The notes beneath the pieces are model-generated. The model was not told where the DNA came from, did not search any database, and saw only the letters and a list, made by a program, of their open reading frames with translations. DNA of 64,000 nt, from contig OZ244864.1 of NCBI GenBank assembly GCA_965221195.1, forward strand, positions 2,006,219 to 2,070,218, in the 5' to 3' direction. The position numbers and the translations under genes were made by a program. Positions 1,390 to 25,218 of the stretch are shown piece by piece (the stretch's first letter is position 1; the number at the start of each line of letters is the position of its first letter). Source of the stretch: Candidatus Poriferisodalis sp. (GTDB lineage Bacteria > Actinomycetota > Acidimicrobiia > Acidimicrobiales > Poriferisodalaceae).

Positions 1390-1435
1390 CGTGCTCAGCG
1401 TCTGGTCACAGAAGGTTTGGTCACAGAAAGTTTGG

Positions 1436-2026: not shown

Positions 2027-2099
2027 CTGGGCTATGTCTGTCGGCAGCGTTCATCGGCCCACTAAACATACCAGCCCCAAGCACACCAAGGGAGCAGCT

Positions 2100-3290
2100 A
2101 TGCCCGGCGCACTTGACGGAATACGGATTCTCGACCTGTCGACCTTGGTGCAAGGTCCCCAAGCTGGCGCAATGCTGCACGATCTAGGCGCCGAGGTTGT
2201 CAAGATTGAGCTGCCGCAGGTCGGCGATGTCGGACGTCACGTTGACGTGCTGGACGACTACGGCCATTCGGCTGTCTACATTGCGTGCAATCGAGGCAAG
2301 CGCTCAGTGACGCTCGATTTGCGGGTCCCGGCCGGACAGGAGGCGTTCCGCAAACTCGTTGAGACGGCCGATGTCGTGCTGTCGAACTTCAAGCCCGGCA
2401 CGCTCGCGCAGTGGGGTCTTGGTTATGAAGATCTTGCCGAAGTGAACCCTCGCATCATCTGGGCGGCGGGAAGTTTTCTCGGTCCCTACGGCCCCGATGC
2501 GGGCCGGGAGGGCGCAGACATCGCGGGACAGGCCTCCGGCGGCATCATCGCTTCGAGCGGTTTCGACGGCGGCCCGTTTTCGACGTACGGAGCGCTGGTC
2601 GCCGATCACTGCGGCGCGCAGAATCTTCAAACTGCCATCTTGGCTGCGCTGTTCGCCCGTGAGCGCACGGGCCGGGGCCAGCGCGTTGATGTGAGCCTGC
2701 TTGGCGGGCAGATCTGGCTGCAGGCATTTGAGTACACGCATCTGCTGATGACCGGTACCGAGGCTGGGCGCTCCAATGGGGGCCATCCGCTGGTGCATGC
2801 CCTCTACGGAGTGTTCCCGACCTCTGACGGCGCGATTGCCATGGCGGGATGCCCCGAGCATCTGTGGCCGGGCATGTGCCGGGCTGTTGAGCGCCCCGAC
2901 CTCTTGGACCATCCCACTTGGAACGCGTACTTCGTGCCGCGTGAGGTGGCGCTAGAGATGCAGGCCTACTTCCGGGAGATATTCCAGACCCGCAGCACCC
3001 AAGAGTGGTGCGAGCGGCTTGAAGCCGAGGAGCAGCGGTTCTGCAAGGTGGTTTCTCATTCGGAGGTGGTGGCCAGCGACCAGCCGTACGCCAACGGCTA
3101 CTTGGTGAGAGCCGAACACGAAGAATGGGGCCCCCAGACGTGGGTGGGCTGCCCGATCACGATGTCTGCGACACCCACCCGGGCGGGGACCATGGTGGCC
3201 GAGCTAGGCCAGCACACCGAAGAGGTGCTGCTTGAAGCCGGTGTCGAATGGGAACAGCTCGAAGTTTGGCGCGAGGCTGGCGCTTGGTAG
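2100..3290 (+). CDS. CoA-transferase family III (CaiB/BaiF type)
   Basis: In-frame ATG at 2100 preceded by AAGGGAG. MPGALDGIRILDLSTLVQGPQAGAMLHDLGAEVVKIE is the canonical family III N-terminus. The 144 upstream codons of the track ORF (from 1668) are repeat-derived and overlap the opposite-strand gene. Confidence 0.85.
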   Translation: MPGALDGIRILDLSTLVQGPQAGAMLHDLGAEVVKIELPQVGDVGRHVDVLDDYGHSAVYIACNRGKRSVTLDLRVPAGQEAFRKLVETADVVLSNFKPGTLAQWGLGYEDLAEVNPRIIWAAGSFLGPYGPDAGREGADIAGQASGGIIASSGFDGGPFSTYGALVADHCGAQNLQTAILAALFARERTGRGQRVDVSLLGGQIWLQAFEYTHLLMTGTEAGRSNGGHPLVHALYGVFPTSDGAIAMAGCPEHLWPGMCRAVERPDLLDHPTWNAYFVPREVALEMQAYFREIFQTRSTQEWCERLEAEEQRFCKVVSHSEVVASDQPYANGYLVRAEHEEWGPQTWVGCPITMSATPTRAGTMVAELGQHTEEVLLEAGVEWEQLEVWREAGAW

Positions 3291-3392
3291 TGGCCAGCGG
3301 CCCGGCAGTATCGGTTTGGCAGTAGTGGTTTGGCAGCGGCTCGGGTCGTTTAGTCTGAGACTCTGTTCAGTGTGGGATGCCGCTGACGCTGT

Positions 3393-4706
3393 TCAGTCGC
3401 TGAGTTCGCTTTCGGTGACGACTGGTCGGCCCGACAGCACCGTGTGACGCACCCGGCCGGTGAGTGTCTGGTTGGCCCACGGAGAGTTGAGGCTGCGCGA
3501 TTGCAGCGACTCAGCATGCACGGTCCAAGTCTCAGCTGGGTCGAAGACGGCGATGTTGGCCGACGAGCCTGCCGCTATCGGCTGCCCGTGGCCGTCAATA
3601 CCGGCAATGCGCGCTGGTGCTGTTGAGACCGCCTCCACAAATCGCGCTGGAGTCATCTGGCCGCTGTTCACCAGTTCGCTCCATACAACAGCGGCCATGG
3701 TTTCGACGCCGATCATGCCCGGCGCCGCTTCGGCCAAGCTGCGGTCTTTGAGGGAGGGATGGTGCGGGGCGTGATCGGTTGCGACGGCATCGAGTGAGCC
3801 GTCTGCGATGGCGCGCCGCAGCGCCGTCACGTCGCTGGCCAAGCGCAGCGGGGGGTTCATTTTGGCGGTCGTGCCGAGGCGCGCTATGTCGTTTTCGGTG
3901 AGCACTAAGTGCTGCGGGGTGACTTCTGCTGTTACTGCAACGCCGTCTTGCTTGGCTTGGGCGACGAGATGCATCGCCTCAGCGGTGGACAGATGCAGTA
4001 CGTGATAGCGGCCGCCGGTGCGTCGGGCGAGTTCGATGTCGCGTTTCACCACCGAGATTTCTGCTGCAGCTGGCCGTCCGCGCAGCCCCAAACGTTCCGA
4101 GGTTGCGCCTGCGTTGATGACACCACCCGCGACCAGTGTTGGGTCTTCGGCGTGCTGGCTGATGACCGAACCAGCCAGCGTGACGGTCGCGCCGAGCGCT
4201 GCTTCCATGAGCGCATCGTCGGCTACGCAGTCTCCGTCGTCGGTGAAGACGCGCACACCGGTGGCGTACAGCGCCGCAAGGTCAACAAGCCGCTGTCCTG
4301 CACGGTCTGCGGTGACGCACGCCGAGGTGCGGACATCGCATGGCATGTCGGTGGCTAGCGCCAGCACCTCAGCAACCATTGCGGGGGTGTCGATCGGCGG
4401 GTTTGTGTTGGGCATCATCAAGCAGGCCGTCACTCCCCCCATAGCGGCACCCGCGGCGCCTGAGGCGATGTCTTCGCTCTCGGTTCCTCCCGGGGTGCGA
4501 AAATGCACCTGAATGTCAACAAAGCCGGGCATGACCCAAGCGTTTGATGCGTCTAGGTGCCGCCGAGCGGCTGGTGCTTGGCCTGCGGGCACAACAGCGG
4601 TGATGATGCCGCCGTCGATAACCACATCAACTGGCTCGCCGTCACCGCTGGTATCAGCCAGTCGACCCGCTGAGATCACCAGTTCCGCCGCCATGCCGTC
4701 CACCAT
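3393..4706 (-). CDS. dihydroorotase-like amidohydrolase (first His of the HxH metal motif is Gln)
   Basis: 437 aa with PGFVDIQVHFRTPGG, MMPNTNPP and ATDHAPHH motifs of class I dihydroorotases. It is not next to other pyr genes. Confidence 0.8.
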   Translation of the reverse strand: MVDGMAAELVISAGRLADTSGDGEPVDVVIDGGIITAVVPAGQAPAARRHLDASNAWVMPGFVDIQVHFRTPGGTESEDIASGAAGAAMGGVTACLMMPNTNPPIDTPAMVAEVLALATDMPCDVRTSACVTADRAGQRLVDLAALYATGVRVFTDDGDCVADDALMEAALGATVTLAGSVISQHAEDPTLVAGGVINAGATSERLGLRGRPAAAEISVVKRDIELARRTGGRYHVLHLSTAEAMHLVAQAKQDGVAVTAEVTPQHLVLTENDIARLGTTAKMNPPLRLASDVTALRRAIADGSLDAVATDHAPHHPSLKDRSLAEAAPGMIGVETMAAVVWSELVNSGQMTPARFVEAVSTAPARIAGIDGHGQPIAAGSSANIAVFDPAETWTVHAESLQSRSLNSPWANQTLTGRVRHTVLSGRPVVTESELSD

Positions 4707-4846
4707 ATGAGCTAGAAAGCCTATGAGCTAGAAGGCATATGAGCTAGCACGCTGATGAGTTCGACACAGAAGTGCTCACACCGTTCGACATGTTGCGTAC
4801 CGAGAGTGCCCAATTTGTCCTCAAAGATCAGAGTAGCTAACTGACG

Positions 4847-4966
4847 ATGTCTACCCCAGTTGACCGCGCTGATGAGGCTGAGGATCGCCGCGAACTTGAG
4901 GCTGCCCGGGCTGAAGACGACTATGTGCCGTGGGAAGAGGCTAAGGCTGCACTCGGACTTGAGTGA
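4847..4966 (+). pseudogene. 39-codon fragment resembling the C-terminus of a type II antitoxin
   Basis: MSTPVDRADEAEDRRELEAARAEDDYVPWEEAKAALGLE. The ...VPWEE.KA.LGL tail is typical of RelB/Phd-class antitoxins, and it sits 25 nt upstream of a RelE/ParE remnant. Confidence 0.4.
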
Positions 4967-4991
4967 ACTAGCTCATCAGTGAGCCAGTGCA

Positions 4992-5102
4992 GTGAACCAG
5001 TACACGGTTGAGATCTCCCGCCGGGCAGTCAAGGCGCTCGCCCGACTCGTTATTCAAGTCGTCTGGGTAGGCCATCGCCGCGATGTCTACCGAAACCCTT
5101 GA
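4992..5102 (+). pseudogene. RelE/ParE-family toxin remnant with internal deletion
   Basis: VNQYTVEISRRAVKALARLVIQVVWVGHRRDVYRNP keeps the N-terminal (YTVEIS..A.K.L..L) and C-terminal (V.VGHRRDVYR) signatures. The roughly 50-aa core between them is missing. Confidence 0.5.
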
Positions 5103-5113
5103 TTCCATTGGTG

Positions 5114-6472
5114 CTAAGGGGTTTCGGTGAACGACTGCGGATGTGGAGGTTCTTCCGATGCACTTCCAGCGGCTACCTCTACCTCAGCGCGACGTTCTAG
5201 GCGCGGCGCCGTGGGTGTCACGGAGCGAAGGTTTTGAAGTACTTCGCCGTAGAAGGTTTCCACAGCGTCAAGAACTGAATCAATGAAACCGGCCTTGCGA
5301 GCCGAGCGACGGCCCTGCCCCATCTCTGAGCGGCGAACCACGCGGAACCGGACAGGTTCATTGCGGGATTCGTCGAGTCCAGCTCGAGAATCCTCGATTA
5401 GTTGGTGCAAGGCCGCCACCGTTGGTGTCTTAGAACGATGCGTGTAGGCCTCGACGATCAGATCTTCCTCTGTGTCGCGCAATTGGCGGGTCAACCAGCT
5501 AACGCGAGCACGGCCGCCCCGGTCGCGTGGCGCATCGAACGTTGCGCTAGTCGTAACGAGTCGAGCCTTGAGATCGGCGGTCACGTTGATGTCCGTGATT
5601 GTGTCTGGTACTCGGAGCGTGCCCGCAAGCGTGCCTTCGTCGCACAATGAGTCAACAAAGGTACGGTTTCGCAACCGCGCGTCGAGACGGTGTGCCCGAG
5701 GTATGACTTCTTGGACATCGTGACCGATTTTGCTGCCGAGTTTCAATGCAGCGAACCTGAGCAGTTGGTCCCATCGTTGGCAGATTTCGATCACAGCGCT
5801 GTCTCGTCGGTCGAGCGTTCCTTCGCGGGCGCCGTCGCGCACGTCCGTCCAGTTCGAGCCCATATCAGAGAATTCCAAGGCGCCTGACTTGGGGTGCTCG
5901 AGATATCGGATAAGCTCGTGGAGTATCCACGCTTGCTCGGGGTCGTCAACACCGCGATGCGCATGTTCCTTCACGGCTTCGGAAAGGATCATCGCCCATG
6001 ACAGGTGGTACACCTTGACCTTGGAATTGGACGGCACCCGTAGCTGGTCGGTCGGGTGAACATCGGGTGACGGTGCGATCTCATTAGAGATAGTGATGAC
6101 GCAGTCGTAGCCGCACTCACGGGCCAGTTTCACATACTCGCTGATTTGCTCGGCATCAAGCGCGGAGTTGCCTGTCTTGGCTTCGATGAGTGCTTCGAAT
6201 TTGCTCTTGCTGCCGAACGTGACTCGCACGAGACCGTCTGGACGCACGGTATGACCGTCGGCCATCTTGTGCGTGACTTCCGTGTAGACCTCTACTGACG
6301 CGCGCGCACTGTTCGTCGCTCCCAAGGGTGTGAGGAGCGCCTTTGAGAACGGGCGCACAATCGAGAGCACTGCCAACAGCGCAGAGACTGCTCTGGTCTC
6401 CGCCTCCTGAGGTCCTGTGCTGCCGGCTATTGGTATCAGTCGCGCCGTCTCTGCGTTGAACTCCACTGTCAC
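5114..6472 (-). CDS. hypothetical protein with N-terminal PD-(D/E)xK nuclease-like core
   Basis: 452 aa with E65...RPD79GLV...E97-A-K99 (VRPDGLVRVTFGSKSKFEALIEAKTG). The long C-terminal region has no motif I recognise. It lies in the defence island. Confidence 0.7.
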   Translation of the reverse strand: MTVEFNAETARLIPIAGSTGPQEAETRAVSALLAVLSIVRPFSKALLTPLGATNSARASVEVYTEVTHKMADGHTVRPDGLVRVTFGSKSKFEALIEAKTGNSALDAEQISEYVKLARECGYDCVITISNEIAPSPDVHPTDQLRVPSNSKVKVYHLSWAMILSEAVKEHAHRGVDDPEQAWILHELIRYLEHPKSGALEFSDMGSNWTDVRDGAREGTLDRRDSAVIEICQRWDQLLRFAALKLGSKIGHDVQEVIPRAHRLDARLRNRTFVDSLCDEGTLAGTLRVPDTITDINVTADLKARLVTTSATFDAPRDRGGRARVSWLTRQLRDTEEDLIVEAYTHRSKTPTVAALHQLIEDSRAGLDESRNEPVRFRVVRRSEMGQGRRSARKAGFIDSVLDAVETFYGEVLQNLRSVTPTAPRLERRAEVEVAAGSASEEPPHPQSFTETP

Positions 6473-6605
6473 TCCCGCTCAGATGCAAACATGGCGCACT
6501 GTAGTACCGACCGGCCATATTGACCCATCAATCGCAAATTCCAGTGGACTTGGTCCACCTTCAGCAGGGCGGAGAGAGTTTAGGCCCCAGAATCCGTTGC
6601 GACAG

Positions 6606-7037
6606 CTACGCGTCAATCGCTTGGTACTTGATACCCACGCCAGCCATTGCGGCCCGGATTCTCGGTCCGTCGTCGCCCGACCAAACGCACAAGGGAGCTC
6701 TTAGGTGTTCCGCGGCGGCTACAGCTTCAGCTCCGAGCGTGGACAGCCGGTAGGTCATGGCTAGCTCTGCCATGCGAAACGCCAGCAAACGCATAGGCAG
6801 GATGTAGCAGTCGTCGCCGAGCATTACGAGACGTCGAGCGAGCTCTCGTCTGGCTGCTGTCGGCCATGAGCCCGTCAACGCTCCGCCAGACGCTGAGACG
6901 AGACTCCGACTGAGACGCACCAGGTAGAGATTCGTGGTCGCCACTGAGTGTTCTGCTAACAGCCGATCAAGACTTGGCCTGATGTCGTCTGCAAGAAGGT
7001 CGCGTAACAAGTGGTCGTCTAGAACGACGTGGCTCAC
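6606..7037 (-). CDS. PIN-like toxin candidate (VapC-like, divergent)
   Basis: 143 aa with N-terminal VVLDDHLL. A 4-nt overlap joins it to an upstream AbrB-type antitoxin gene. Confidence 0.55.
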   Translation of the reverse strand: MSHVVLDDHLLRDLLADDIRPSLDRLLAEHSVATTNLYLVRLSRSLVSASGGALTGSWPTAARRELARRLVMLGDDCYILPMRLLAFRMAELAMTYRLSTLGAEAVAAAEHLRAPLCVWSGDDGPRIRAAMAGVGIKYQAIDA

Positions 7038-7273
7038 GTAGTTGCAAGTTCCGTGTCGTCGCCCAAAGACTCAACGAACGCAGCGTGGGCTTCGCGGCTC
7101 AAAATGTCGCCAAGAAACCGCCGCCCTTGTCCGACGGGCAAGGTGAGTACCCCGAAGCCCAGATCAACAACGTCAACTGGTCCTCCGTCGTCAAGTTCCC
7201 AACGGTGACGTGCAGCGGCCGGCAACGACATCTGCCCAGACGATGAGACCAAATACTCCCTCACTGCACTCAT
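7034..7273 (-). CDS. AbrB/MazE/SpoVT-type antitoxin
   Basis: The start at the ATG at 7273 gives 79 aa. GQMSLPAAARHRWELDDGGPVDVVDLGFGVLTLP is a swapped-hairpin AbrB-like motif. It overlaps the downstream PIN-like gene by 4 nt. Confidence 0.65.
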   Translation of the reverse strand: MSAVREYLVSSSGQMSLPAAARHRWELDDGGPVDVVDLGFGVLTLPVGQGRRFLGDILSREAHAAFVESLGDDTELATT

Positions 7274-7355
7274 GCGCACGACTCTACTTGGTAAGTGAGC
7301 CCAATCCACCAAGTTTTGATGTGTCTAGTTGCCGCTGAGCGGCGATACTGAGACA

Positions 7356-7670
7356 GTGAGTGCTCGAGTAGAGGTCAGGCCTGCGCTGTTGCGTTGGGCT
7401 CGTCGCAGGTCGGGTATCGGCGAGGAGGTGTGGTCCAAGCGCTTTCCGAATTTTGATGCTTGGGTTAGTGGCGAAGCGCAACCCACTGTGCGCCAGTTGC
7501 AGGATTTCGCCGCCAAGCTGCAAGTGAACGCCGCCAACGCTTTTGACAGCAGTTCGACAGTGACTTCGCCGCCAAGCCGCAGGCGAATCTCGTCATCGCG
7601 CATAGCGCGGATAGTACCTCAGGCATCAGGTGGCCAGCCGATCAAGGATGCGCTTGTGGCGCTCCATTGA
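7356..7670 (+). pseudogene. XRE-type HTH (ImmA/IrrE-partner-like) remnant, degenerate after about 55 codons
   Basis: VSARVEVRPALLRWARRRSGIGEEVWSKRFPNFDAWVSGEAQPTVRQLQDFAAKL matches the usual N-terminus of these regulators. The sequence then turns into low-complexity SSSTVTSPPSRRRISSS. Confidence 0.35.
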
Positions 7671-7811
7671 GACGGCAAGCCGGTGCTGGAAGTTTGAGCC
7701 TTCGCGAAAACGTGGGATTTGGGTTGCTGGGTTCGGTGGGGTCAGGTTAGTAGCAGGCCTCGGGCCTAGTAGTTGGCGTGGTTGGTGAAGCCGCGGACTT
7801 TGCGTCGGGTG

Positions 7812-7916
7812 CTAATGGTCATCTTGCATGCGGCGGACAAGCACTTCGGCTGGTTCGTGTGTCTTGTGCACCCCCTGAACGGCGCGACATGCGCTACCGG
7901 CTTCGGTAGATGACAT
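7812..7916 (-). other. 34-codon mini-ORF, copy A of a duplicated element
   Basis: MSSTEAGSACRAVQGVHKTHEPAEVLVRRMQDDH. It is a paralogue of copy B at 8732-8836, sharing the core KTHEPAEVLVRRM. Confidence 0.35.
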
Positions 7917-8105
7917 CTGAGGCTCGACCGTCATTTTGCCGCTCACCGGCAAACGAACTTCATCGTCGCTTGGTCGTAGATCGTGAAGTAGCGCTGTGAT
8001 GTGGACGACCCAGCAAGCACTTGTGCCATGGACCTGTCGTCAAGCGCAGCGATGAACTCGACGTGTGCGAATACCTGCTCTCCGAGATAGCCGTCGCTGT
8101 GTCAA

Positions 8106-8423: not shown

Positions 8424-8707
8424 GCTGGCCTCAAACTGCTCGGTCGTGCGGGCATAGCGTGCAGTATCAGGTAGGTGTTGGTGTCAGGGTCGTGTCGAAA
8501 CCCTACTTCCAGCAGACTGCCGTCGTGCTGTGCGCCGGTGCTCATGATGAATCCGTCGTCTTGGAAGTCAGTGGTCATCGCGTTTCGGTATGCGTGCAAG
8601 ATGTCCCCGTCGCTGATGCCGAGGCGAGAATGCGGATGCCGGGTGCGTGATTGACCATCGGCGGACGAACCGACGCAGTCGGATTCAAAGATTCCAATAC
8701 TTTTCAT
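8420..8707 (-). CDS. small toxin-like protein (family not identified)
   Basis: 95 aa with HPHSRLGISDGDILHAYRNA ... GSLLEVGF ... YLILHAMPAR. The pattern and two-gene overlap architecture fit a type II TA module. Confidence 0.5.
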   Translation of the reverse strand: MKSIGIFESDCVGSSADGQSRTRHPHSRLGISDGDILHAYRNAMTTDFQDDGFIMSTGAQHDGSLLEVGFRHDPDTNTYLILHAMPARPSSLRPA

Positions 8708-8731
8708 GGTATTTCGTTGGCGCGTCGTGGG

Positions 8732-8836
8732 CTATTGGCTGTCGCGCATGCGTCGGACAAGCACTTCGGCGGGTTCATGCGTCTTGAGTACTCCGCGGGC
8801 GGAGCGATATGCGCTGAGGCACCGCGTTGTCGCCAC
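8732..8836 (-). other. 34-codon mini-ORF, copy B, 24 nt upstream of the toxin-like gene
   Basis: GTG-initiated VATTRCLSAYRSARGVLKTHEPAEVLVRRMRDSQ. It has the same length as copy A and matches it in sequence. Confidence 0.35.
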
Positions 8837-8924
8837 ATCGTCAGGTGCTGTTGGCGTAGACACGAAATCAATTCGTTTGCGTGTGGCAGATCGGTGTAAG
8901 GATGCGCAGTCGAAAGGGGAGTCC

Positions 8925-10241
8925 GTGACGGCTGAGGTTGTGATCCTGAATCGTGAAGCCGTAGCTGTCGCGGCAGACAGCGCGGCCACCGTCGTCGGCC
9001 GAGGCCCCAAGATCTACAACACTGCCAACAAGCTGTTCCTCCTCTCGTCGGTGGCACCAGTGGCGGTGATGATCTACGGCGCAGGCACATTTGGCCCTGT
9101 CCCTTGGGAGACGGTTGTGAAGGAGTACCGCAGGACACGCGGTGCCCGATCCTTCGGGACGGTCGCTGAGTACGCCGCTGACTTCATCGACCATCTGGCA
9201 GACCTGACTCAGCATGTGACCCGGGCCGAGCAACTTGAGCGTGTCTTGATGACTGCGCGCTGGGAGCTTGAGGCGATCCGCGGCGTTGTGGAAGATGAAG
9301 TCACTGATGCAATGGCCGATGGCACTGCACTGGACGACTCCGCGGTCATTGGGCGCATCCTTGCCGAAATCGAGGCAGCTATCGAGCGACTCACCGGCAG
9401 CACATTCATTGAAGGACTTGGCGCCACGGTCGTTGAGCGCGAGATCGGCAGCGCTGTGCCTGATTGGCCCGGCCTTGTCGCTGCTGCCTTCTGGGGTATG
9501 CCTGTTGACGCTCGCGTTGTTCGTCGTGCAAGGGTTCTCGTGTGCACATCGTTGCGGTTGGCGGATCGGTCGCCTAGAAGCGGTGGAGTGGTCGTGACGG
9601 GGTTCGGTGAATCTGAGATATTTCCCGCGCTTTCGCACTATCTCCTTGACGGCGTGGTAGCGAACCGAGTACGAGCACGGTCGGACGGCGGCCTCAGTAT
9701 CGGTGGCGACCGGTCGGCAAGTATCTGCCCGTTTGCGCAAGAGGACATGGTTGCCGCGTTCATGGACGGCGTGCATCCCGGCTTCCGATTGGCTCTTGAT
9801 GAGTTCGTGGACAGCACCGTAGCCATGCTCATCGAGCGCCTCTGCGGCATCGTCAAAGACTCGCTTACCGCAGCGGCCTACGGGCAACTGCAAGACGAGA
9901 TGCGTGAGGCTCGGGACTGGGTCACCACGCACTTCGAGAGCGAGCTGGCGGAATATCTTGAGCGGAACAATTCAGGGCCGATCATGTCGGTTGTGGAGGT
10001 GCTGCCCAAAGAGGAGCTGGCAGCGATGGCCGAGGCGCTCGTGAACCTGACCTCGTTCAAGCGAAGAGTCACACCTGGGGTTGAGACTGTGGGCGGCCCC
10101 ATCGATGTCGCTGTGATATCAAAGGGCGACGGTCTCGTGTGGATCAAGCGCAAGCACTATTTCGACCCTGATCTGAATTATCGGTACTTTGAACGCGACC
10201 GCCGACTCAGCTATTCTCGCAGACCAGAAGGAGCATCATGA
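8925..10241 (+). CDS. proteasome-beta/HslV-like Ntn-hydrolase domain protein with large helical insertions
   Basis: GTG at 8925 with AAGGGGAG a few nt upstream, and codon 2 is Thr. TAEVVILNREAVAVAADSAATVVGRGPKIYNTANKLFLL..IYGAGTF parallels HslV [44 protein letters not shown] (recalled from memory). Later motifs are VVVTGFGESE and VGGPIDVAVISKGDGLVWI. Confidence 0.7.
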   Translation: MTAEVVILNREAVAVAADSAATVVGRGPKIYNTANKLFLLSSVAPVAVMIYGAGTFGPVPWETVVKEYRRTRGARSFGTVAEYAADFIDHLADLTQHVTRAEQLERVLMTARWELEAIRGVVEDEVTDAMADGTALDDSAVIGRILAEIEAAIERLTGSTFIEGLGATVVEREIGSAVPDWPGLVAAAFWGMPVDARVVRRARVLVCTSLRLADRSPRSGGVVVTGFGESEIFPALSHYLLDGVVANRVRARSDGGLSIGGDRSASICPFAQEDMVAAFMDGVHPGFRLALDEFVDSTVAMLIERLCGIVKDSLTAAAYGQLQDEMREARDWVTTHFESELAEYLERNNSGPIMSVVEVLPKEELAAMAEALVNLTSFKRRVTPGVETVGGPIDVAVISKGDGLVWIKRKHYFDPDLNYRYFERDRRLSYSRRPEGAS

Positions 10242-10629: not shown

Positions 10630-12193
10630 ATGGTGACGGGTGAACTGAAACGGCAGATCGATGCGGTGTGGAACGACTTCTGGTCGGGCGGCATCTCGAA
10701 CCCACTGGAGGTGATGGAGCAGCTCACCTATCTGCTGTTTGTCAAAGCGCTCGACGAGCAGCAGACCTTGGCTCACAATAAGGCGAACCGCACGGGCCAG
10801 CCGATCCCTGCCGACGACGACATCTTCCCCGACGGCGGGCAGTTCCGGCCCGAGGGCCGTGCTGATGCCCGTCCGTACAGCGATCTGCGCTGGTCACAGT
10901 TCAAGCACCTTCCGGCTGCTGAAATGTTTGATGTCGTTGAGAACTACGTGTTCCCCTTCTTGCAGGCACGGGCCGCCAAGAGCACCCACGCGCAGCACAT
11001 GCGCGACGCCCGGCTGACGATCCCCACGGCGACGCTCCTGCAGAAGGCTGTCGATGGGCTAGATGCAGTCGAGATGGCCGACCGCGACACCAAAGGCGAC
11101 GTGTATGAGTACATGCTCTCCAAGATCGCCACCGCCGGCCAAAACGGGCAGTTCCGCACACCGCGGCACATCATTGAACTGATGGTTGAGATGACCGCCC
11201 CCCAGCCAGACGACACCATCTGCGACCCCGCCAGCGGCACCTGCGGGTTCTTGGTGGGCGCCGGGGAGTACATCCGGCGTGAGCATCCGAGCGTGCTCAC
11301 CGATCCCAAGGGGTCGATGCATTTTCACAACAAGATGTTCTCGGGCTACGACTTTGACAACACGATGCTGCGCATCGGATCGATGAATATGCAACTCCAC
11401 GGCGTGCAGAACCCGCGTATCAGCTACCGAGATTCGTTGGCCGAAAGCCACGCCGATGACGCTGAGGCCTACAGTCTGATTCTCGCCAACCCGCCGTTCG
11501 CTGGCTCGCTCGACTATGAGGGCACCGCCAAAGACCTCTTGGCGGTTGCTCGCACCAAAAAGACCGAACTGTTGTTTATTGCGCTGTTTTTGCGGCTGCT
11601 CAAGCCCGGCGGACGAGCGGCGGTGATCGTGCCCGACGGGGTGCTGTTTGGTTCAACTAAGGCGCACAAAGAACTGCGCCGTATCTTGGTAGAAGACCAC
11701 AAGCTCGACGGCATCGTTTCGTTGCCAGGTGGTGTATTTAAGCCGTACGCCGGGGTTTCCACAGCGATCTTGCTGTTTACCAAAACTAACTCTGGTGGCA
11801 CCGACCTCGTCTGGTTTTACGACCTTCAGGCTGATGGTTACAGCCTTGACGACAAGCGCACTCCCCTGCTGGACGACGACAAGCTGGGCACAAAGGTTGA
11901 GTTGATTGCGGGGGGGGGGGGGGGGGCATTCCAAGAACAACCTGCCCGATGCACTCGCTCGTTGGAAGCAGCGTGACGGATCTGAGTTAGAGCGCTCTCG
12001 CACCGATCAATCGTTCTGCGTTCCCAAGGTTGACATAGCCGCCAACGATTACGACCTCAGCATCAACCGCTACAAGGAGATCGTCTACGACGAAATCGAG
12101 TACGAACCGCCGACTGTGATCCTCGACGAGCTTGCCGATCTCGAACGGGAGATCCTGGCAGGTATCGACGATCTAAAGGCAACCTTAGGATGA
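10630..12193 (+). CDS. hsdM: type I R-M methyltransferase subunit HsdM, reading frame broken at a G17 tract
   Basis: HsdM N-terminal domain (IDAVWNDFWSGGISNPLEVMEQLTYLLFVKAL), FRTPRHI and the NPPFAG catalytic motif. The frame from 10630 stops at 11976. The conserved HsdM C-terminus (NNLPDALARWKQRD...NDYDLSINRYKE) continues in the next frame to 12193. Removing one G restores a single ORF. Confidence 0.85.
11910..11926. repeat. homopolymer G17 inside hsdM
   Basis: Counted directly: the g at 11910 plus 16 further g up to 11926. Confidence 0.95.
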
Positions 12194-13155
12194 GGGGACA
12201 ATTGAGACTCGTCATCGATCGAGCGTTCGATGAACTCTGGCAGCCACTTACGAATCACGATGACTGCCCTGCGAGTGTTTTTGGTGAGGTTTTTACTGGC
12301 TTGCGCCCATTCCTTCGTGAACCTGAACCGGAGTTCGTAAAAGAAGAAGACAACGGCCCAATTCGCAACAAAGCCACCAACTTCGACGATCAAGCCTTAT
12401 GTGCAATGAGTGACCCGAAGACCGCCGAAATTCTGCTGAAAAACTTATCAAAGGAGAGTTTCATATCGGAAAATGACACCCGCCGAGCCGCCAGTAGCAC
12501 TTGGGAGATTCTTGTCGATATCGCAACCGAAGATCTTGCGAAAGAATACGTGAGCCTTCTTAAGAATTTTATTGAACGTTATAACTTGCGCTACTATGTT
12601 GGCGAGAATGCCCAACTCTGGATTTCTTTTTCTGGACTTGCTACATCGCTGTTCGGCCAACTCCGCTTTATAGCGCAGGGTCATCCTCATCTTCTACAAC
12701 AGCTTAACGAATTCGAACAGACATTAGCTGAATGCCTGAATCAACCTTCAGAGAATCGAATCAAGACCTCGATCCAAAAACAAACGAACCTGCTGGAAGC
12801 CTTCGGTTCACAAAACGGCCTCATTTCTGGCAACACGCTCGGGGCTATGCTCGATCAGGCAAATAACTGGCCGCACACCAGTCTTTGCGATGCCGCGAAA
12901 AATTTATACAAGTTTGCGTCTGATTATCCAGGTATTCGTCACGGAGGTAACTTTGACTCATCTAATCGCGCACTGGACCTGCGTGATCTCAGCAGCGTCA
13001 CGCTTTCACTCGTCGGACTCGCCGCGTACATGGCTGACGGTTTTGAGGAGCAAGTTGCCTCCGCCATACAGGGTGACCTTCTTCCAACCGTCACTCTTAG
13101 CAGTGTTGCAACGCCTTCGCCTCCAACATGTAGAGACAAGACGAACCAACTATGA
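12190..13155 (+). CDS. hypothetical protein embedded between hsdM and hsdS (low GC)
   Basis: 321-aa ORF. ATGA overlaps occur at both ends (12190-12193 with the hsdM stop, 13152-13155 with the hsdS start). It is visibly AT-richer than its neighbours, and I recognise no family. Confidence 0.7.
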   Translation: MRGQLRLVIDRAFDELWQPLTNHDDCPASVFGEVFTGLRPFLREPEPEFVKEEDNGPIRNKATNFDDQALCAMSDPKTAEILLKNLSKESFISENDTRRAASSTWEILVDIATEDLAKEYVSLLKNFIERYNLRYYVGENAQLWISFSGLATSLFGQLRFIAQGHPHLLQQLNEFEQTLAECLNQPSENRIKTSIQKQTNLLEAFGSQNGLISGNTLGAMLDQANNWPHTSLCDAAKNLYKFASDYPGIRHGGNFDSSNRALDLRDLSSVTLSLVGLAAYMADGFEEQVASAIQGDLLPTVTLSSVATPSPPTCRDKTNQL

Positions 13156-14339
13156 CAGGATTTTCTGGGTTCGAAGAAATGACAGATGACGTGAAGTGGC
13201 CCATAGTGCCCGTTCGAGATGTAGCCACCGCAGAAAGGAATGCAGTTTCAGCGGATCAGGTCCACGGAGATGAGTTGTACGTTGGATTGGAGAATGTGAC
13301 TAGTGACGGAGTCTTCGAAAACGTGGTAGTTGCAAGCAAGGCAAACTTGAAGAGTAACAAATTCGCGTTTACGGAGGATCATGTGCTCTACGGCAAGCTA
13401 CGCCCGTACCTCGCCAAAATAGCCGCACCTGACTTCGCTGGCATCTGCAGCACCGACATACTCCCTATTAGGCCAAGTACCAGACTTGACCGCCGCTACC
13501 TGCTGTATTTTCTGCGAACACCGATGATGGTTGCCCGTGCGGCGAGCAATGCCGTGGGGATAAATCTTCCCCGACTGAACCCGAAGACATTGGAGTCATT
13601 CGAGATTCCGTTGCCGCCGATTGGGGAGCAGAGGCGGATTGCGGCGATATTGGATGCGGCTGATGCTCTCCGAGCGAAGCGTCGTCAAACTCTCGCCAAG
13701 CTCGACGATCTGACGCAATCAATCTTCCACGAACAGTTCATTCGTGCGAACGGGTGGCCGGGTTCGTTGGACACGACACTTGGTGAGATAGCGGAGATTG
13801 TATCAGGCTCGACACCCAAAACCGGTGTCGAGCGTTACTGGAACGGTGATGTCTGGTGGGCGACACCGAAGGACCTAAGTGAAATCACGAGTCCGTATAT
13901 CGATGCTACTGAGCGCACGCTGTCTGAGGCTGGCCTCCAGAGCTGCTCTGCCTCCGTCTTGCCTGCCCATTCCGTCCTCTTGAGTTCGCGGGCCCCAATC
14001 GGATACGTAGCTATCAATACTACCCCCATGGCCACCAACCAAGGATTCAAGAATTTCGTCCTTGATTCGAAGTGTGTCGATCCTAGGTTTCTCTATTCTT
14101 GGTTGCGTTTCCACCGTCCACAGCTGCAGGCAATGGGAAGTGGTGCGACCTTCAAAGAGATATCCAAGAGAACCGTCTCTTCGGTACCGATTCGCTTGCC
14201 GACAATCGAGAAACAACGTGAATTTGGCGAGGTGTTTGACAAGGCCGAGGCGCTGCGAATCACAGCGGAACATGAATTGACGATGCATGACACGTTGTTT
14301 GCTTCACTACAGCAGCGGGCGTTTCGGGGGGAACTGTGA
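13152..14339 (+). CDS. hsdS: type I R-M specificity subunit HsdS
   Basis: 395 aa with two target-recognition halves separated by a conserved helix (LPPIGEQRRIAAILDAADALRAKRRQTLAKLDDLTQSIF). The C-terminal helix is LPTIEKQREFGEVFDKAEALR. Confidence 0.85.
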   Translation: MTGFSGFEEMTDDVKWPIVPVRDVATAERNAVSADQVHGDELYVGLENVTSDGVFENVVVASKANLKSNKFAFTEDHVLYGKLRPYLAKIAAPDFAGICSTDILPIRPSTRLDRRYLLYFLRTPMMVARAASNAVGINLPRLNPKTLESFEIPLPPIGEQRRIAAILDAADALRAKRRQTLAKLDDLTQSIFHEQFIRANGWPGSLDTTLGEIAEIVSGSTPKTGVERYWNGDVWWATPKDLSEITSPYIDATERTLSEAGLQSCSASVLPAHSVLLSSRAPIGYVAINTTPMATNQGFKNFVLDSKCVDPRFLYSWLRFHRPQLQAMGSGATFKEISKRTVSSVPIRLPTIEKQREFGEVFDKAEALRITAEHELTMHDTLFASLQQRAFRGEL

Positions 14340-17300
14340 GCGGGTCGCAGTTCTCGTTTCTCGAAGCTGAGTTTCAGCCGCAGTTCGGTGCAGCGGCTCG
14401 GGCTGAGGGCTACACCCTGTCCGACCCCGGCGCAGCGGTGATCTATGCACGCAAATGCCTGGAGTCAGCCGTCACATGGATGTACCAGCACGACCCGTCG
14501 CTGCCTGCGCCGTACGATGACACGCTCGGTGCACGGCTGAACAACCCAGCTTTCCAAGCACTCGAAGATGGTCGCATTTTTGAGGCGGCACGCAAGGTTC
14601 AGCGAGCCGGCAACCGTGCAGCACACGAATCGAAAGCGCCGTCGAAGCTCGAAGCGGTCGAGGTCGTCTCGGCGCTGTTCGGGTTCTGTCTGTGGTTCGC
14701 ATTCACCTACGGGCGCGCATCGAAGCCTGATCCGTCGCAGCGGTTCAACCCGCACCTGCTGCTCGACGCGGGTGAAGCCGAGCGGGCCTCGCTGCGCCAG
14801 CGCCAAGAACTCGAGCAACGTCTTGAGCGCGAGTCTGCCGAGCTTGCCACTGCTCAGCAGCGACTGGCCGAATCGACACGCAGCGCTGAAGAACTACACA
14901 CCGAGCTGGCGAATCTGCGGGCAGAGGTGGCCGCTGCCAAGAAGCAGGCAGCCGAGACCGTCCCGCCCGACGCGTTCGACTGGTCTGAAGCCGAAACTCG
15001 CAAGTTCAAGATCGATGCGCTGCTGGCCGAAGCCGGTTGGACCGATCTCGCCGAAGGCCGCGACACCGAATACGAAGTGCATGGCATGCCGTCGGAGTCG
15101 GGCGTTGGCTACGTCGACTATGTGCTGTGGGGTGCCGATGGCAAACCGCTCGCCGTGATAGAGGCCAAGAAAGCCTTAGCCGATCCGAAGATCGGCACCC
15201 AACAAGCCAAGCTGTATGCCGATTGTTTAGAAACCGAGACCGGCCAACGGCCAGTCATCTACGCCAGCAACGGTTATGAGCATTGGCTGTGGGACGACAC
15301 CCAGTATCCACCTCGCCAAGTGCAAGGGTTCTGCACCCGCGACGAACTGGCTTTGCTCATTGCGCGGCGTACGGCTCGCATGTCGCTGGCGTCGCTGGAC
15401 GTAGACGGGCAGATCGTTGACCGTCACTATCAGCGGCGAGCGATCAGCGCCATCGCCGAGCACTTCGAGCACGCCAACCAGCGCAAGGCACTGCTGGTGA
15501 TGGCCACCGGCGCAGGCAAAACCCGCACGGTGATTGCTTTGACGGATCTCTTGATGCGAGCCGGATGGGTGAAGCGGGTGCTGTTTTTGGCGGATCGCAC
15601 AGCGCTCGTACACCAAGCCGCACACGCCTTCAAGACGCACCTACCCAATGCGGCACCGGTGAACTTGGTGACCGAACCCAACGTAGACGGACGAGTGTAT
15701 GTATCTACCTATCAGACGATGGTCGGCAAGATCGACGAGTATCGGCGCAACGGCATTCGCCGGTTCGGTGTGGGGTATTTCGACTTGGTGGTTATCGATG
15801 AAGCGCACCGGTCGGTGTATCGCAAATACCGGGGCATCTTCGACTATTTCGACTCGTTGCTGGTGGGCCTCACTGCGACCCCCAAAGACGAGGTCGACAA
15901 GAACACCTACGACTTGTTTGATCTTGAGACTGGCGTGCCCACCGACGCGTATTCACTTGAAGATGCCATTGGTGACGACTATTTGGTGCCGCCTCGGGGC
16001 GTGTCGGTTGAACTCAAGTTCGTGCGTGAAGGCATCAGATACGACGAACTCTCCGATGACGAGAAAGACACTTGGGACGAACTCGACTGGGGCGAAGATG
16101 ATGAGGGCGATCCCCTAGCGCCGCCAGAGGCCGTTGATGCCGCCGAACTCAACAAATGGTTGTTCAACCGCGACACCGTCGACCGGGTGCTCGAATACCT
16201 GATGGTCGAGGGCATTAAGGTAGCTGGTGGCGACCGGCTCGCCAAGACGATCATTTTCGCCAAAAATCAAAAGCACGCCGAGTTCATAAAAGAACGCTTC
16301 GATGCCAACTATCCAGCCCTCGATGCTGGCAATTTCGCGCGGGTTATCACCCATCAGACGAGCTACGCCCAGAGCCTGATCGACGATTTTTCCAACAAAA
16401 CCAGGTCGCCGCATATCGCTATCAGCGTTGACATGCTCGACACCGGCATAGATGTGCCCGAGGTCGCCAACTTGGTGTTTTTCAAGCCGGTGCATTCCAA
16501 GACCAAGTTCTGGCAAATGTTGGGCCGCGGCACCCGACTGTGCGCCGACTTGTTCGGCCCCGGTGAGCGCAAGACTCACTTCAACGTGCTTGACTTCTGC
16601 GGGAACCTCGAGCATTTCAACCAGCCACTGGCGCCAGCAAAGACATCGAGCGGACGTTCGCTCAGCGAGATTTTGTTCTCGACCCGTCTGGAATTGTTGA
16701 GCACACTCGACGCGCTGGCGGGCTTCGGCGATGAGCGAGTGGAGGTTGCGGCGACGCTGCAACAGGCCGTGGCGTCGATGAACCCCGACAACTTCTTAGT
16801 GCGCCCGCACTTGGAGCTAGTTGAGCGGTTCAGTGCGCCAGAAGCGTGGGAAACAGTATCGCTGGCGGACTTGGCCGAACTCAACGAGCGGGTGGCCAGC
16901 CTTGCTGACCAGCTCAACGCCGACCACGAAGACGCCAAATGCTTCGACGTGGTGATGCTGAATGCGCAGTTGGGTCTGCTGCGAAGCGAGCCCAAGCCGT
17001 TTGAGCGACAGCGGCAGCGAGTCATGCGCGTGGCATCCGCCTTGGCCGACTTGGGCACATCCATTCCCGTGGTGGCTCAGCAACAAGAACTGATCGCAGA
17101 CATACAGACCGACGAGTGGTGGACCGATGTCACCTATCCGATGCTCGAAGATGCCCGCAAGCGATTGCGGAACCTCACTCAGCTCATCGTTCGTGCCGAC
17201 AAAAAGGTTCTCTACAGCGACTTCGCCGATGAGTTCGGCGGTGCCAGTGTGATTGACCTGCCCGGCGGTGGCAAGCCGGGCGGCAGTCACGATGTTGCCG

Positions 17301-17785
17301 ATGACAGCAGTGATGAGTTCGCACAGTTCCGCCGCAAGGCGCAGCATTTCTTGAAGGAGAACCTTGCCGAAGGTGTCGTAGCCAAAGTTCGCAGCGGCGA
17401 GCCGCTCACCCAGCACGACATGGATGAACTCCAGCGAGTGCTGGTGGCCGCCGGCATCGGCGACGACTCAACGTTCGCCAAGGCATCACGGCGGGCTGGC
17501 AGCTTTGGGTTGTTTGTCCGCTCGCTGGTGGGGCTCGACCGAGCCGCTGCCAAGCGCGCCTTTGCCAAGTTCCTCAACGACAAGCGCTACAGCGTCAACC
17601 AGATCCGCTTCGTGGAGCTGGTGATCGATTACCTCACCGAACATGGCACCGTAGAGCAACACCGCGTCTACGAATCGCCGTTCATCAGCGTCGCCCCACA
17701 AGGACCCGACGCCATCTTCGTATCCGACGACCTCGAAGAGTTCTTCAAAATCGTCGACCAATTCCACAAAACCGCCGCTGTTTAG
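14336..17785 (+). CDS. hsdR: type I restriction enzyme R subunit HsdR with N-terminal DUF4145/HEPN-like domain and coiled coil
   Basis: 1149 aa. The N-terminus has AARKVQRAGNRAAHE (DUF4145-like), followed by a coiled coil. The nuclease core is GYVDYVLWGADGKPLAVIEAKK. Helicase motifs are MATGAGKT, VIDEAH and GLTATP. GTGA overlap with hsdS. Confidence 0.9.
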   Translation: MSGSQFSFLEAEFQPQFGAAARAEGYTLSDPGAAVIYARKCLESAVTWMYQHDPSLPAPYDDTLGARLNNPAFQALEDGRIFEAARKVQRAGNRAAHESKAPSKLEAVEVVSALFGFCLWFAFTYGRASKPDPSQRFNPHLLLDAGEAERASLRQRQELEQRLERESAELATAQQRLAESTRSAEELHTELANLRAEVAAAKKQAAETVPPDAFDWSEAETRKFKIDALLAEAGWTDLAEGRDTEYEVHGMPSESGVGYVDYVLWGADGKPLAVIEAKKALADPKIGTQQAKLYADCLETETGQRPVIYASNGYEHWLWDDTQYPPRQVQGFCTRDELALLIARRTARMSLASLDVDGQIVDRHYQRRAISAIAEHFEHANQRKALLVMATGAGKTRTVIALTDLLMRAGWVKRVLFLADRTALVHQAAHAFKTHLPNAAPVNLVTEPNVDGRVYVSTYQTMVGKIDEYRRNGIRRFGVGYFDLVVIDEAHRSVYRKYRGIFDYFDSLLVGLTATPKDEVDKNTYDLFDLETGVPTDAYSLEDAIGDDYLVPPRGVSVELKFVREGIRYDELSDDEKDTWDELDWGEDDEGDPLAPPEAVDAAELNKWLFNRDTVDRVLEYLMVEGIKVAGGDRLAKTIIFAKNQKHAEFIKERFDANYPALDAGNFARVITHQTSYAQSLIDDFSNKTRSPHIAISVDMLDTGIDVPEVANLVFFKPVHSKTKFWQMLGRGTRLCADLFGPGERKTHFNVLDFCGNLEHFNQPLAPAKTSSGRSLSEILFSTRLELLSTLDALAGFGDERVEVAATLQQAVASMNPDNFLVRPHLELVERFSAPEAWETVSLADLAELNERVASLADQLNADHEDAKCFDVVMLNAQLGLLRSEPKPFERQRQRVMRVASALADLGTSIPVVAQQQELIADIQTDEWWTDVTYPMLEDARKRLRNLTQLIVRADKKVLYSDFADEFGGASVIDLPGGGKPGGSHDVADDSSDEFAQFRRKAQHFLKENLAEGVVAKVRSGEPLTQHDMDELQRVLVAAGIGDDSTFAKASRRAGSFGLFVRSLVGLDRAAAKRAFAKFLNDKRYSVNQIRFVELVIDYLTEHGTVEQHRVYESPFISVAPQGPDAIFVSDDLEEFFKIVDQFHKTAAV

Positions 17786-18267: not shown

Positions 18268-19014
18268 ATGGCCGATAAGTCAGCCATCGAGTGGACCGAA
18301 GCGACATGGAACCCGACCACGGGCTGCGATCGCACCTCGCCGGGCTGTGACAACTGCTATGCGCTCGCTCTGTCGAAGCGGTTGAAGGCGATGGGTTCGC
18401 CCAAGTACCAGAACGACGGCGACCTAGCGACGAGCGGGCCGGGCTTCAGGCTGACCCTCCATCCTTCGTCGCTTGACGTGCCGAAGCGATGGAATGCTCC
18501 CCGCCTTGTCTTTGTGAACTCAATGAGCGACCTTTTTCACGAGGACGTGCCTGTCGAGTTCATCGCGCAGGTCTTCGCCGTGATCCGCCAGACACCTCAG
18601 CACACCTACCAAGTGCTCACCAAGCGGGCGCAGCGCTTGAGCCGAATCGCCGGCGATCTGGACTGGCCGTCGAATCTGTGGATGGGCGTGAGCGTGGAGA
18701 CTCGCCGATACGCGTTCCGCGTCAATCATTTGCGCAAAGTGCCCGCTGCTGTCAGATTCGTCAGTGCCGAGCCGTTGCTCGGCCCGCTGGGCGACCTGAA
18801 TCTCGACGGTATCCACTGGGTGATTGCGGGCGGCGAGTCCGGCATCAACGCACGGCCCATGGAACTTGACTGGGCCACAGAACTCCGCGACACCTGCACC
18901 TCCGCCGGCGTGTCGTTCTTCTTCAAACAGTGGGGCGGTAGGACACCCAAGGCCGGTGGGCGCGAACTCGAAGGTGAGTACTGGGACGAGGTGCCGCTCA
19001 GGTTGGCGAGCTAG
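18268..19014 (+). CDS. DUF5131 (phage Gp37/Gp68-like) three-Cys-motif protein
   Basis: MADKSAIEWTEATWNPTTGCDRTSPGCDNCYA is the characteristic N-terminus of this family (recalled). 248 aa. Confidence 0.8.
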   Translation: MADKSAIEWTEATWNPTTGCDRTSPGCDNCYALALSKRLKAMGSPKYQNDGDLATSGPGFRLTLHPSSLDVPKRWNAPRLVFVNSMSDLFHEDVPVEFIAQVFAVIRQTPQHTYQVLTKRAQRLSRIAGDLDWPSNLWMGVSVETRRYAFRVNHLRKVPAAVRFVSAEPLLGPLGDLNLDGIHWVIAGGESGINARPMELDWATELRDTCTSAGVSFFFKQWGGRTPKAGGRELEGEYWDEVPLRLAS

Positions 19015-19018
19015 GCCT

Positions 19019-20095
19019 GTGGCGGTTCCAACCGGAATTCTCTGGGAGCGCGATTCCCACACCGCTGCGAAGCACACACTGCTGCGCCGCTACTTGGAAG
19101 CTTGGTTTCCGATCATGGCCAAGCAGTTCATACACGAGGGAATCACCTTCCTTGACGGCTTTGCCGGGCCCGGCGAGTACACGAACGACCACGAGAGTTC
19201 GCCCACGATCGCCATGAACCAAGCGATGCGAGATGGGGTGACGCGATGGGGCACCCGAACACGGCTCGTGTTCATCGAGGCCCACGCCAAGCGCGCCGAG
19301 CATCTGCGAGAGCATCTCGATGCACGCTTTCCGCCGTCGATCAGGCCGCCCGGTCTGGTTGCCCAAGTGCATCCTGGCGAGTGCGCTGCTGTCTATGAAC
19401 GGGCCATCGCTGACATCGACGGTTGGACGGGTCCAGTGTTTGCGAACCTCGACGGCTGGGGTGCCGACACCGACTACGAGATCGTGCAGCGCATCGCGGC
19501 CCACCCGTCTTCGGAGGTGCCTGTCACCTTTCAGGATCAGTTCTTCGTCCGTTTCGCCGACGGCGACCAAGAAGCGGGCGAGCGTGTGTTCGGACATGCC
19601 GACTGGCGAAGTGTCGGCGGGTTGCCCACCGCTGAGAAAAAGCCGTTCCTGCTCAACCAGTACCGAAGCGGCCTCCATGCCGCGGGCTTCGACTATGTGC
19701 TGATCTTCGAGATGATCGATGAAGGTGGACACTCCCTGCATCAGTTCTTCGGTACCAAGAGCGATGTCGCCGTTGGCAAGTTCAAGGACGGGCTGTGGGA
19801 AGTCGACGGCATATCTGGCCAGAGCTTCCGAGATCCACGAGACCCCGATCAGATGGCTTTCGACTTTCTCGAGCCGGACTTCACAAGATTGGACGATCAG
19901 ATATTGAAGCTGCTGGACGACGGCGACCGCAGCATGGCCGATCTCTGCCGCCATTCCCTGCTTGAGACGATCTACAAGGAGACTCACGTCAAGCCGAGAG
20001 TTGACGCGCTTGTAACCAAAGGGAAGCTAGAGCAAGTCAGCGCAAGTCAGTCATACGAAAAACGCGTCTTTCGTCGAGCGCAGCAGTTGTTCTGA
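19019..20095 (+). CDS. TcmP-like partner protein of the three-Cys-motif protein
   Basis: In-frame GTG at 19019, 5 nt after the upstream stop. ILWERDSHTAAKHTLLRRYLEAWFPIM...FLDGFAGPGEY matches my memory of the three-Cys-motif partner family. The track ORF start at 18824 overlaps the upstream gene and is unlikely. Confidence 0.65.
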   Translation: MAVPTGILWERDSHTAAKHTLLRRYLEAWFPIMAKQFIHEGITFLDGFAGPGEYTNDHESSPTIAMNQAMRDGVTRWGTRTRLVFIEAHAKRAEHLREHLDARFPPSIRPPGLVAQVHPGECAAVYERAIADIDGWTGPVFANLDGWGADTDYEIVQRIAAHPSSEVPVTFQDQFFVRFADGDQEAGERVFGHADWRSVGGLPTAEKKPFLLNQYRSGLHAAGFDYVLIFEMIDEGGHSLHQFFGTKSDVAVGKFKDGLWEVDGISGQSFRDPRDPDQMAFDFLEPDFTRLDDQILKLLDDGDRSMADLCRHSLLETIYKETHVKPRVDALVTKGKLEQVSASQSYEKRVFRRAQQLF

Positions 20096-25208: not shown

Positions 25209-25218
25209 CCCCCCCCCC
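25209..25218. repeat. homopolymer C10 upstream of the type ISP-like gene
   Basis: Counted directly. It lies 27 nt upstream of the ATG at 25245. Confidence 0.9.

Follow-up and report, generated by a model that had tools for sequence, protein, structure and literature searches.

An uncharacterised helical protein family encoded beside hsdS in type I restriction-modification operons of bacteria and an archaeon

What does a fourth gene do inside a type I restriction-modification (R-M) operon? The stretch of DNA analysed here, hereafter the window, comprises 64,000 nucleotides of contig OZ244864.1 (positions 2,006,219 to 2,070,218; assembly GCA_965221195.1) from Candidatus Poriferisodalis sp., a member of the Acidimicrobiia. 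At 10630-17785 its forward (+) strand carries a type I R-M operon in the order hsdM-X-hsdS-hsdR, where X stands for the gene, and for its product, that we set out to understand. The operon is composed as follows:

10630..11976, + strand: N-terminal frame of hsdM, 448 codons as assembled; Pfam HsdM_N and N6_Mtase, E 1e-54
11910..11926, + strand: run of 17 G within hsdM, in the linker ahead of the C-terminal helices; breaks the frame as assembled
11927..12193, + strand: C-terminal part of hsdM, in another frame; ends on a TGA that overlaps the ATG of X
12190..13155, + strand: X, 321 amino acids, uncharacterised family, in the long form of the Acidimicrobiia
12922..12948, + strand: codons of the X signature loop, D245-Y-P-G-I-R-H-G-G253
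13152..14339, + strand: hsdS, 395 amino acids; Pfam Methylase_S in two stretches, E 3e-38
14336..17785, + strand: hsdR, 1149 amino acids, EcoEI-like; Pfam ResIII, SWI2_SNF2, Helicase_C, EcoEI_R_C, DUF4145 and HSDR_N

When recomputed from the sequence, the coordinates of X and the stop/start overlaps that chain the genes together are those given in the original prediction: ATGA between hsdM and X (12190-12193), ATGA between X and hsdS (13152-13155) and GTGA between hsdS and hsdR (14336-14339). The overlapping junctions around X are consistent with translational coupling. One detail has to be amended: the ATGA at the start of X is present, but the hsdM stop within it belongs solely to the frameshifted C-terminal fragment of hsdM (open reading frame (ORF) 11906..12193), the N-terminal frame ending at 11976, 50 nucleotides past the G tract. 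That the fragment is part of hsdM is seen from tblastn, in which 11927..12193 is 53-64% identical to the HsdM C-termini of other loci. Promoter- and terminator-like patterns within the operon were no more frequent than in shuffled sequence. The reported AT richness of X is likewise borne out, with a whole-gene G+C content of 0.488, as compared to 0.60 for hsdM, 0.535 for hsdS, 0.598 for hsdR and 0.602 for the 64-kb window, and two earlier hand counts (24/60 at 12421-12480 in X, 44/60 at 11221-11280 in hsdM) are exact.

X is a real protein under purifying selection, its ratio of nonsynonymous to synonymous substitution rates (dN/dS) against orthologues being 0.14-0.20. Nor is it the orphan it had been taken for. 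A single-sequence search with the window protein retrieved 51 homologous protein clusters, nearly all of them full length, at identities from 72% down to 26%; an exhaustive profile search then returned 818 representatives (clustered at 50% identity) at E<=1e-3, 177 of them at E<=1e-30, and a second, word-indexed profile search added few further members. In a scan of one genome per species, relatives of X occurred in at least 153 species. Hosts include, besides Acidimicrobiia, Alpha-, Beta-, Gamma- and Deltaproteobacteria, Acidobacteriota, Planctomycetota, Nitrospirota, Chloroflexota, Gemmatimonadota and Verrucomicrobiota as well as the archaeon Methanosarcina. Members range from 274 to 381 amino acids in length and bear the label 'hypothetical protein' in every source that names them at all.

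The genomic context of the family was surveyed over about 105 X-bearing loci, onto the first 95 of which the window's HsdM, HsdS and HsdR were mapped. In all 95, X lay within a type I operon: 72 loci had the order M-S-X-R, 12 had M-X-S-R and 11 were versions cut by contig ends. The order M-X-S-R, to which the window conforms, marks a clade of Acidimicrobiia. A phage-labelled faecal contig and two IMG/VR contigs read M-S-X-R, and on a Ruegeria megaplasmid the annotated order is methyltransferase, S subunit, hypothetical protein, DUF262/DUF1524 protein, helicase. Recurrence of homologues within hsd operons, proposed earlier as a check, is thus found throughout; the opposite outcome, homologues residing mostly elsewhere, has no instance, as not one X was found outside a type I R-M operon among the about 105 loci examined. 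Wherever a locus is long enough to show it, hsdR accompanies X.

The most constant feature of this context is the adjacency of X and hsdS, which are usually direct neighbours. Where the junction was measured, 0-3 nucleotides separate the hsdS stop from the X start in most loci, or the two overlap by 4 nucleotides, and in the M-X-S-R loci the junctions are ATGA overlaps, with the X stop running onto the hsdS start. Even in one of the most divergent members (L105), a HsdS gene directly precedes X. In locus L102 (JGI 3300085322, 902..7947), the order is hsdR-hsdM-hsdS-X-Fic, X is a divergent member (27-28% identity) and the R-M proteins are only 30-36% identical to those of the window. This HsdR is of another type, so X is not confined to one HsdR type and the link to hsdS is what stays constant. 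(The L102 HsdR is 803 amino acids long, lacks EcoEI_R_C and DUF4145, and is surrounded by a conjugative element with ArdC, VirB3 and VirB4.) A few Rhodobacterales-type loci place a Hypoth_Ymh (HEPN) gene between hsdS and X. The one such case inspected directly, L045, encodes at 5198..6001 a 267-residue Hypoth_Ymh protein with a canonical RNPLAH (Rx4H) HEPN motif and stop/start overlaps on both sides, an example of a genuine HEPN match in these operons; similar hsdS-X gaps of ~800 nucleotides are present in L053, L055, L057, L064, L069 and L074.

On its other side, X borders what amounts to a variable cargo slot: the X-hsdR gap differs from locus to locus while X itself stays fixed (L009-L011, L026, L045, L096 and others). 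Its contents include GmrSD (~700 amino acids), GmrSD_N-only proteins (~575), AlbA_2 plus HATPase_c_4 proteins (~545), Fic (L028) and Uma2 (L015). The Methanosarcina hadiensis chromosome carries the arrangement M-S-X-GmrSD-R (L026), with an X 34% and a HsdR 53% identical to those of the window, which suggests transfer of the whole module between domains. Genes of mobile elements lie near several of the operons, namely an integrase in L009 and L096 and TrwC or VirB4 in L102 and L103. Upstream of the operon, the window holds, directly before hsdM and on the same strand, an ORF of 511 codons (8706..10241) that matches nothing in Pfam, NCBIfam or PADLOC; the genes 5' of hsdM vary by locus, with a SMC_N-like protein in L005 and helicases in L001.

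How long has X belonged to these operons? Over 58 non-redundant complete loci, pairwise identities of X correlate with those of HsdR (r 0.80) and HsdM (r 0.74), as compared to 0.91 between HsdM and HsdR and 0.19 between X and HsdS, which recombines; mean pairwise identities are 0.71 for HsdM, 0.61 for HsdR, 0.51 for X and 0.28 for HsdS. The divergence of X therefore tracks that of HsdM and HsdR, marking it as a long-time traveller with the operon. Its low G+C content is a family-wide trait that it has in common with hsdS: relative to the mean of hsdM and hsdR, X is poorer in G+C in 77% of loci (average deficit 3.6 points, or 12 at third codon positions) and hsdS in 96% (5.9 and 18 points). X is no recent foreign insert, and the cassette that its composition had suggested is rejected on account of this co-divergence and of a G+C dip of X and hsdS that recurs across dozens of hosts.

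Long residence does not make X a core component of the enzyme. Operons that lack X include ones whose HsdR is 46-50% identical to that of the window, as close as in most X-bearing loci. One such operon, on a Cryobacterium plasmid, is an overlapping M-S-R array with no insert, and other X-less relatives hold unrelated inserts: XRE plus DUF4411 in Acinetobacter, XisH/XisI/PIN in Leptolyngbya and a 169-residue hypothetical protein in Thioclava. Since these sister operons have complete M-S-R sets without X, the gene is accessory. A core type I subunit is ruled out by the same close relatives and by the absence of any Hsd Pfam domain from X.

The protein itself is acidic (isoelectric point (pI) 4.8, net charge -14; family median pI 5.0, 5-95% range 4.6-7.8). 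AlphaFold2 models of the window protein (mean predicted local distance difference test score (pLDDT) 82.8, predicted template modelling score (pTM) 0.73) and of P0047, a short-form member of 280 amino acids modelled from a 42-sequence alignment (pLDDT 94.1, pTM 0.82), are both compact and almost wholly helical with two short hairpins; in the former, the last 23 residues are disordered and confidence is lower in the 241-260 loop. Compared with the common short form of ~280 amino acids, the X of Acidimicrobiia has a small insertion near residues 51-60 and a C-terminal tail (297-321). Conservation is concentrated in the C-terminal half, where the loop D245-Y-P-G-I-R-H-x-G253 is invariant in alignment A1. 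Among 165 diverse members, H251 (95%), R260, D266, E203, P228-H229, F242, Y135 and G149 are conserved in at least 90%, and R250 (88%), R134, W227, Y246, G253, Y280, E94 and W17 in 80-90%.

As previously supposed, X belongs to no recognised curated family: none of 26 members matched Pfam, even at E<=1, NCBIfam gave nothing meaningful and PHROG nothing significant, and a profile search of PDB sequences returned chance matches only (E>=0.4). The sole library family matched is PADLOC PDC-S32, which 25 of the 26 aligned members hit collinearly (E 1e-5 to 1e-11, best 1.3e-11). These matches are weak and confined to the C-terminal 70-110 residues around the YPGIRH loop; for the window protein (E 3.9e-6) residues 188-256 cover 67 of the 285 model positions, about a quarter. 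The similarity indicates distant homology, making X at best a distant sister of PDC-S32, whose models, at 280-285 positions, are about as long as short-form X. The PDC families are candidates predicted computationally from their embedding in BREX, DISARM or type I R-M loci (Payne et al., bioRxiv 10.1101/2024.01.29.577857). For PDC-S32, we found neither a mention nor a described function in the papers searched and no entry in the supplementary files of that guilt-by-embedding preprint. The earlier designation of X as undescribed needs qualifying in view of these C-terminal matches.

Within one lineage of type I R-M operons, X is a fourth gene that can be dispensed with. We tentatively read its product as an effector or modulator that is tied to the R-M complex in the way PrrC is, and hold this reading with somewhat less than even confidence. 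X would bind the HsdM2-HsdS methyltransferase core or the full R2M2S complex and act as a second-line factor coupled to it, most likely as a latent effector or sensor that is held silent by the intact complex and unleashed when a phage disables restriction, for example by means of a DNA-mimic or Stp-like inhibitor. Established precedents for such logic are PrrC with EcoprrI and RonA with a decoy HsdMS. Its active or ligand-binding site may be the invariant polar cluster formed by the D-Y-P-G-I-R-H-x-G loop together with E203, H229, R260, D266 and R134/Y135. A factor docking on the Hsd complex is favoured because the obligate linkage of X resembles that of PrrC and RonA and is unlike that of autonomous cargo.

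How far does the resemblance go? The prrC gene is located between hsdS and hsdR, which is also the place of X in most of its family. Like X, PrrC (EcoprrI, the prr locus) and RloC are encoded by accessory genes that occur almost only in type I R-M operons and are optional for restriction. In contrast to X, which has no AAA, ABC or P-loop match in Pfam, NCBIfam or PADLOC, they combine an N-terminal ABC-type NTPase with a C-terminal nuclease; X also differs from them in being a ~280-320-residue, acidic, all-helical protein with another constellation of conserved residues. According to the guilt-by-embedding preprint, PrrC occurs almost nowhere but within type I R-M loci (Payne et al., bioRxiv 10.1101/2024.01.29.577857). 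RonA kills when on its own and is kept silent by HsdMS, to whose genes it is always linked; caging of its activity by the methyltransferase core and release by anti-restriction proteins have been proposed. Ronin (RonA plus decoy HsdM/HsdS) and X thus both involve a small partner gene linked to hsdM and hsdS, yet RonA is a 61-residue membrane peptide and Ronin usually comes without hsdR, whereas X is soluble-looking, ~300 residues long and accompanied by hsdR.

Several observations weigh against an effector. A regulatory or assembly subunit would be just as likely to show co-inheritance and translational coupling, and the context survey, being seeded on X, shows the need of X for an R-M operon rather than its activity. 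X is without the ATPase sensor module used by PrrC; library scans detected no toxin, nuclease, NTPase or membrane domain in it; and the acidic pI of the family is atypical of effectors that cleave nucleic acids. Foldseek searches with both models against the PDB, and with the window model also against viral predicted structures, gave no match at E<=0.001 (best E 0.26). The fold is without a solved relative, and the chemistry of the invariant site is not readable from sequence. A more specific version of the proposal would see in X the founder of a new class of effectors or sensors caged by the restriction complex, with a helical fold not seen before and carried by one widespread type I lineage of bacteria and archaea. 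Such a protein would dock on HsdM2S and turn the inhibition of restriction by phage anti-restriction proteins into a second defence, via an invariant YPGIRH-centred site whose chemistry would be new to defence systems. In this full form we consider the proposal unlikely.

Alternatively, X may be a regulatory or assembly subunit and not a killer, binding the methyltransferase core or HsdR for restriction alleviation in a new host, for methylation tuning or for HsdS stabilisation. We take this, the main rival, to be a serious possibility, if still on the unlikely side. The linkage data fit it just as well: X lies mostly beside hsdS and is tightly chained to it, as fits matched production, and its divergence follows that of HsdM and HsdR nearly as closely as these two follow each other. 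Its acidic character fits somewhat better than with an effector and would suit binding to DNA-binding surfaces; there is no recognisable catalytic domain; and the operons often reside on mobile elements (L009, L096, L102, L103), where control of establishment matters. However, sister operons function as plain M-S-R without X, and the invariant set of E, H, H, R, D, R and Y resembles a catalytic or ligand site more than a simple binding surface. Neither a helix-turn-helix nor any other regulator signature was found in X members by the Pfam scan, and the pI, moderately acidic and reaching 7.8 within the family, is unlike that of true DNA mimics. A DNA-mimic anti-restriction protein of the Ocr or ArdA kind was considered separately and rejected on account of these values (4.8 for the window protein, a family median of 5.0 and up to 7.8), the lack of a significant PHROG match and the finding that matches in phage collections lie only inside R-M operons.

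Could X be a divergent HEPN-type RNase, its C-terminal helical bundle housing a degenerate active site? The original prediction had pointed in this direction with two weak motif candidates. One of them, RFIAQGH, is free to vary among homologues, R160 and H166 both staying below 80% conservation. The other, YPGIRHGGN, turns out to be a true family signature, but R250 and H251 are adjacent in it, so that it is not an Rx4-6H motif, and no conserved His follows any conserved Arg at a distance of 4-6 residues. Sub-threshold, domain-sized Foldseek matches in two runs do include three HEPN structures, namely 5yep_C and 1wol (target-normalised template modelling (TM) score 0.38, probability 0.15-0.20) and the sacsin HEPN domain 3o10_A (TM score 0.50, probability 0.20), and hhalign sets the I-R-H-x-G-N loop and the next helix opposite the R-x-G-N-x3-H region of the HsdR DUF4145 domain; we treat all of these matches as a lead and not evidence. 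HEPN genes such as Hypoth_Ymh are moreover embedded in the same operons. Yet these structural and profile matches are insignificant (Foldseek E>=2.8; hhalign probability 0.8%), and none of the 26 members matches a Pfam HEPN, Abi or DUF4145 model at E<=1. A HEPN nuclease is, in our judgment, improbable. As for HsdR itself, its N-terminal DUF4145 domain (window 14336..14700; HsdR residues 23-110) carries the sequence QRAGNRAAHE; relatives without X have this N-terminal region too, their alignments beginning at residue 4-5, so that it does not co-vary with X.

Genes embedded in R-M operons can also work on their own, as exemplified by TgvAB, an embedded system able to act independently, and X might be an autonomous defence gene hitch-hiking in the operon with no functional dependence on the R-M enzyme. 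The variable slot of these operons, with its GmrSD, GmrSD_N-only, AlbA_2/HATPase_c_4, Fic, Uma2 and Ymh genes, lends some colour to this idea, as does the G+C content of X and hsdS, which in both is lower than that of hsdM and hsdR. TgvAB/GmrSD, Fic and Hypoth_Ymh HEPN genes share operons with X and often adjoin it. These families, however, are widespread outside R-M operons and differ between loci, whereas X is constant and, in the loci examined, was never seen outside type I operons. Its position beside hsdS is fixed, with cargo varying beyond it, and its divergence mirrors that of hsdM and hsdR, the opposite of what a shuffled cassette would display. We therefore regard independent cargo as improbable too. 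Finally, a spurious ORF or decaying remnant in an AT-rich spacer, which has only the local drop in G+C to recommend it, is refuted by full-length homologues spanning 72% to 25% identity, the 818 profile matches, the dN/dS and the confident models, and its likelihood is practically nil.

Genes nested in restriction operons have repeatedly proved to be second-line immunity, as in the cases of PrrC, RonA and TgvAB. The X family is an uncharacterised case of this recognised phenomenon of embedding, with a function that we infer, and a clean one: it combines obligate hsd linkage in the loci examined with occurrence in at least 153 species of many phyla, an archaeon included, and with the absence of any Pfam, NCBIfam, PHROG or PDB relative despite a model of pLDDT 94. 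It poses the question of why an R-M complex needs a fourth protein. A guard effector, if true, would extend the PrrC paradigm to a new fold, and a regulator, if true, would represent a new way of controlling type I enzymes. Either way, the family is a worthwhile, albeit not extraordinary, experimental target.

The 17-G run deserves attention of its own. With 16 or 19 G in place of 17, hsdM would become a single ORF of 520 or 521 codons that ends on the TGA overlapping the X start. The orthologous operon of another genome (L001), whose X is 61% identical, has a 14-G run (5721-5734) at the same linker position, which is also out of frame and whose hsdM frame is restorable with 12 or 15 G; the orthologous loci L003 and L005 have no G run at that position of hsdM. 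Judged from these sequences, the tract has the look of a conserved switch that makes the whole chained operon phase-variable. Alternatively, the exact run lengths may reflect homopolymer errors of long-read assembly.

Directly downstream of hsdR, the window encodes a DUF5131 protein (18268..19014; PADLOC PDC-M41B/M30B, E 1e-100 or better), followed by a TcmP 'three-Cys-motif partner' protein (18824..20095; NCBIfam TIGR04474, PADLOC PDC-M30A), and together the two form another candidate defence pair. The TTG start listed for the latter, which entails a 190-nucleotide overlap with the former, probably lies upstream of the true one, given that similarity to the family sets in only at about residue 75.

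Homopolymers of at least 8 bases are found just four times in the 64-kb window: besides the 17-G run in hsdM, these are C10 at 25209-25218, C16 at 25408-25423 and G10 at 29372-29381. The two C runs lie just upstream of ORF 25754..29599 and the G10 inside its 3' end. This ORF encodes a 1281-residue helicase-methyltransferase fusion (ResIII, Helicase_C, N6_Mtase, Eco57I), with which another ORF starting near 25246 may connect across the C16 run, and could be a second phase-variable restriction-like gene of the window.

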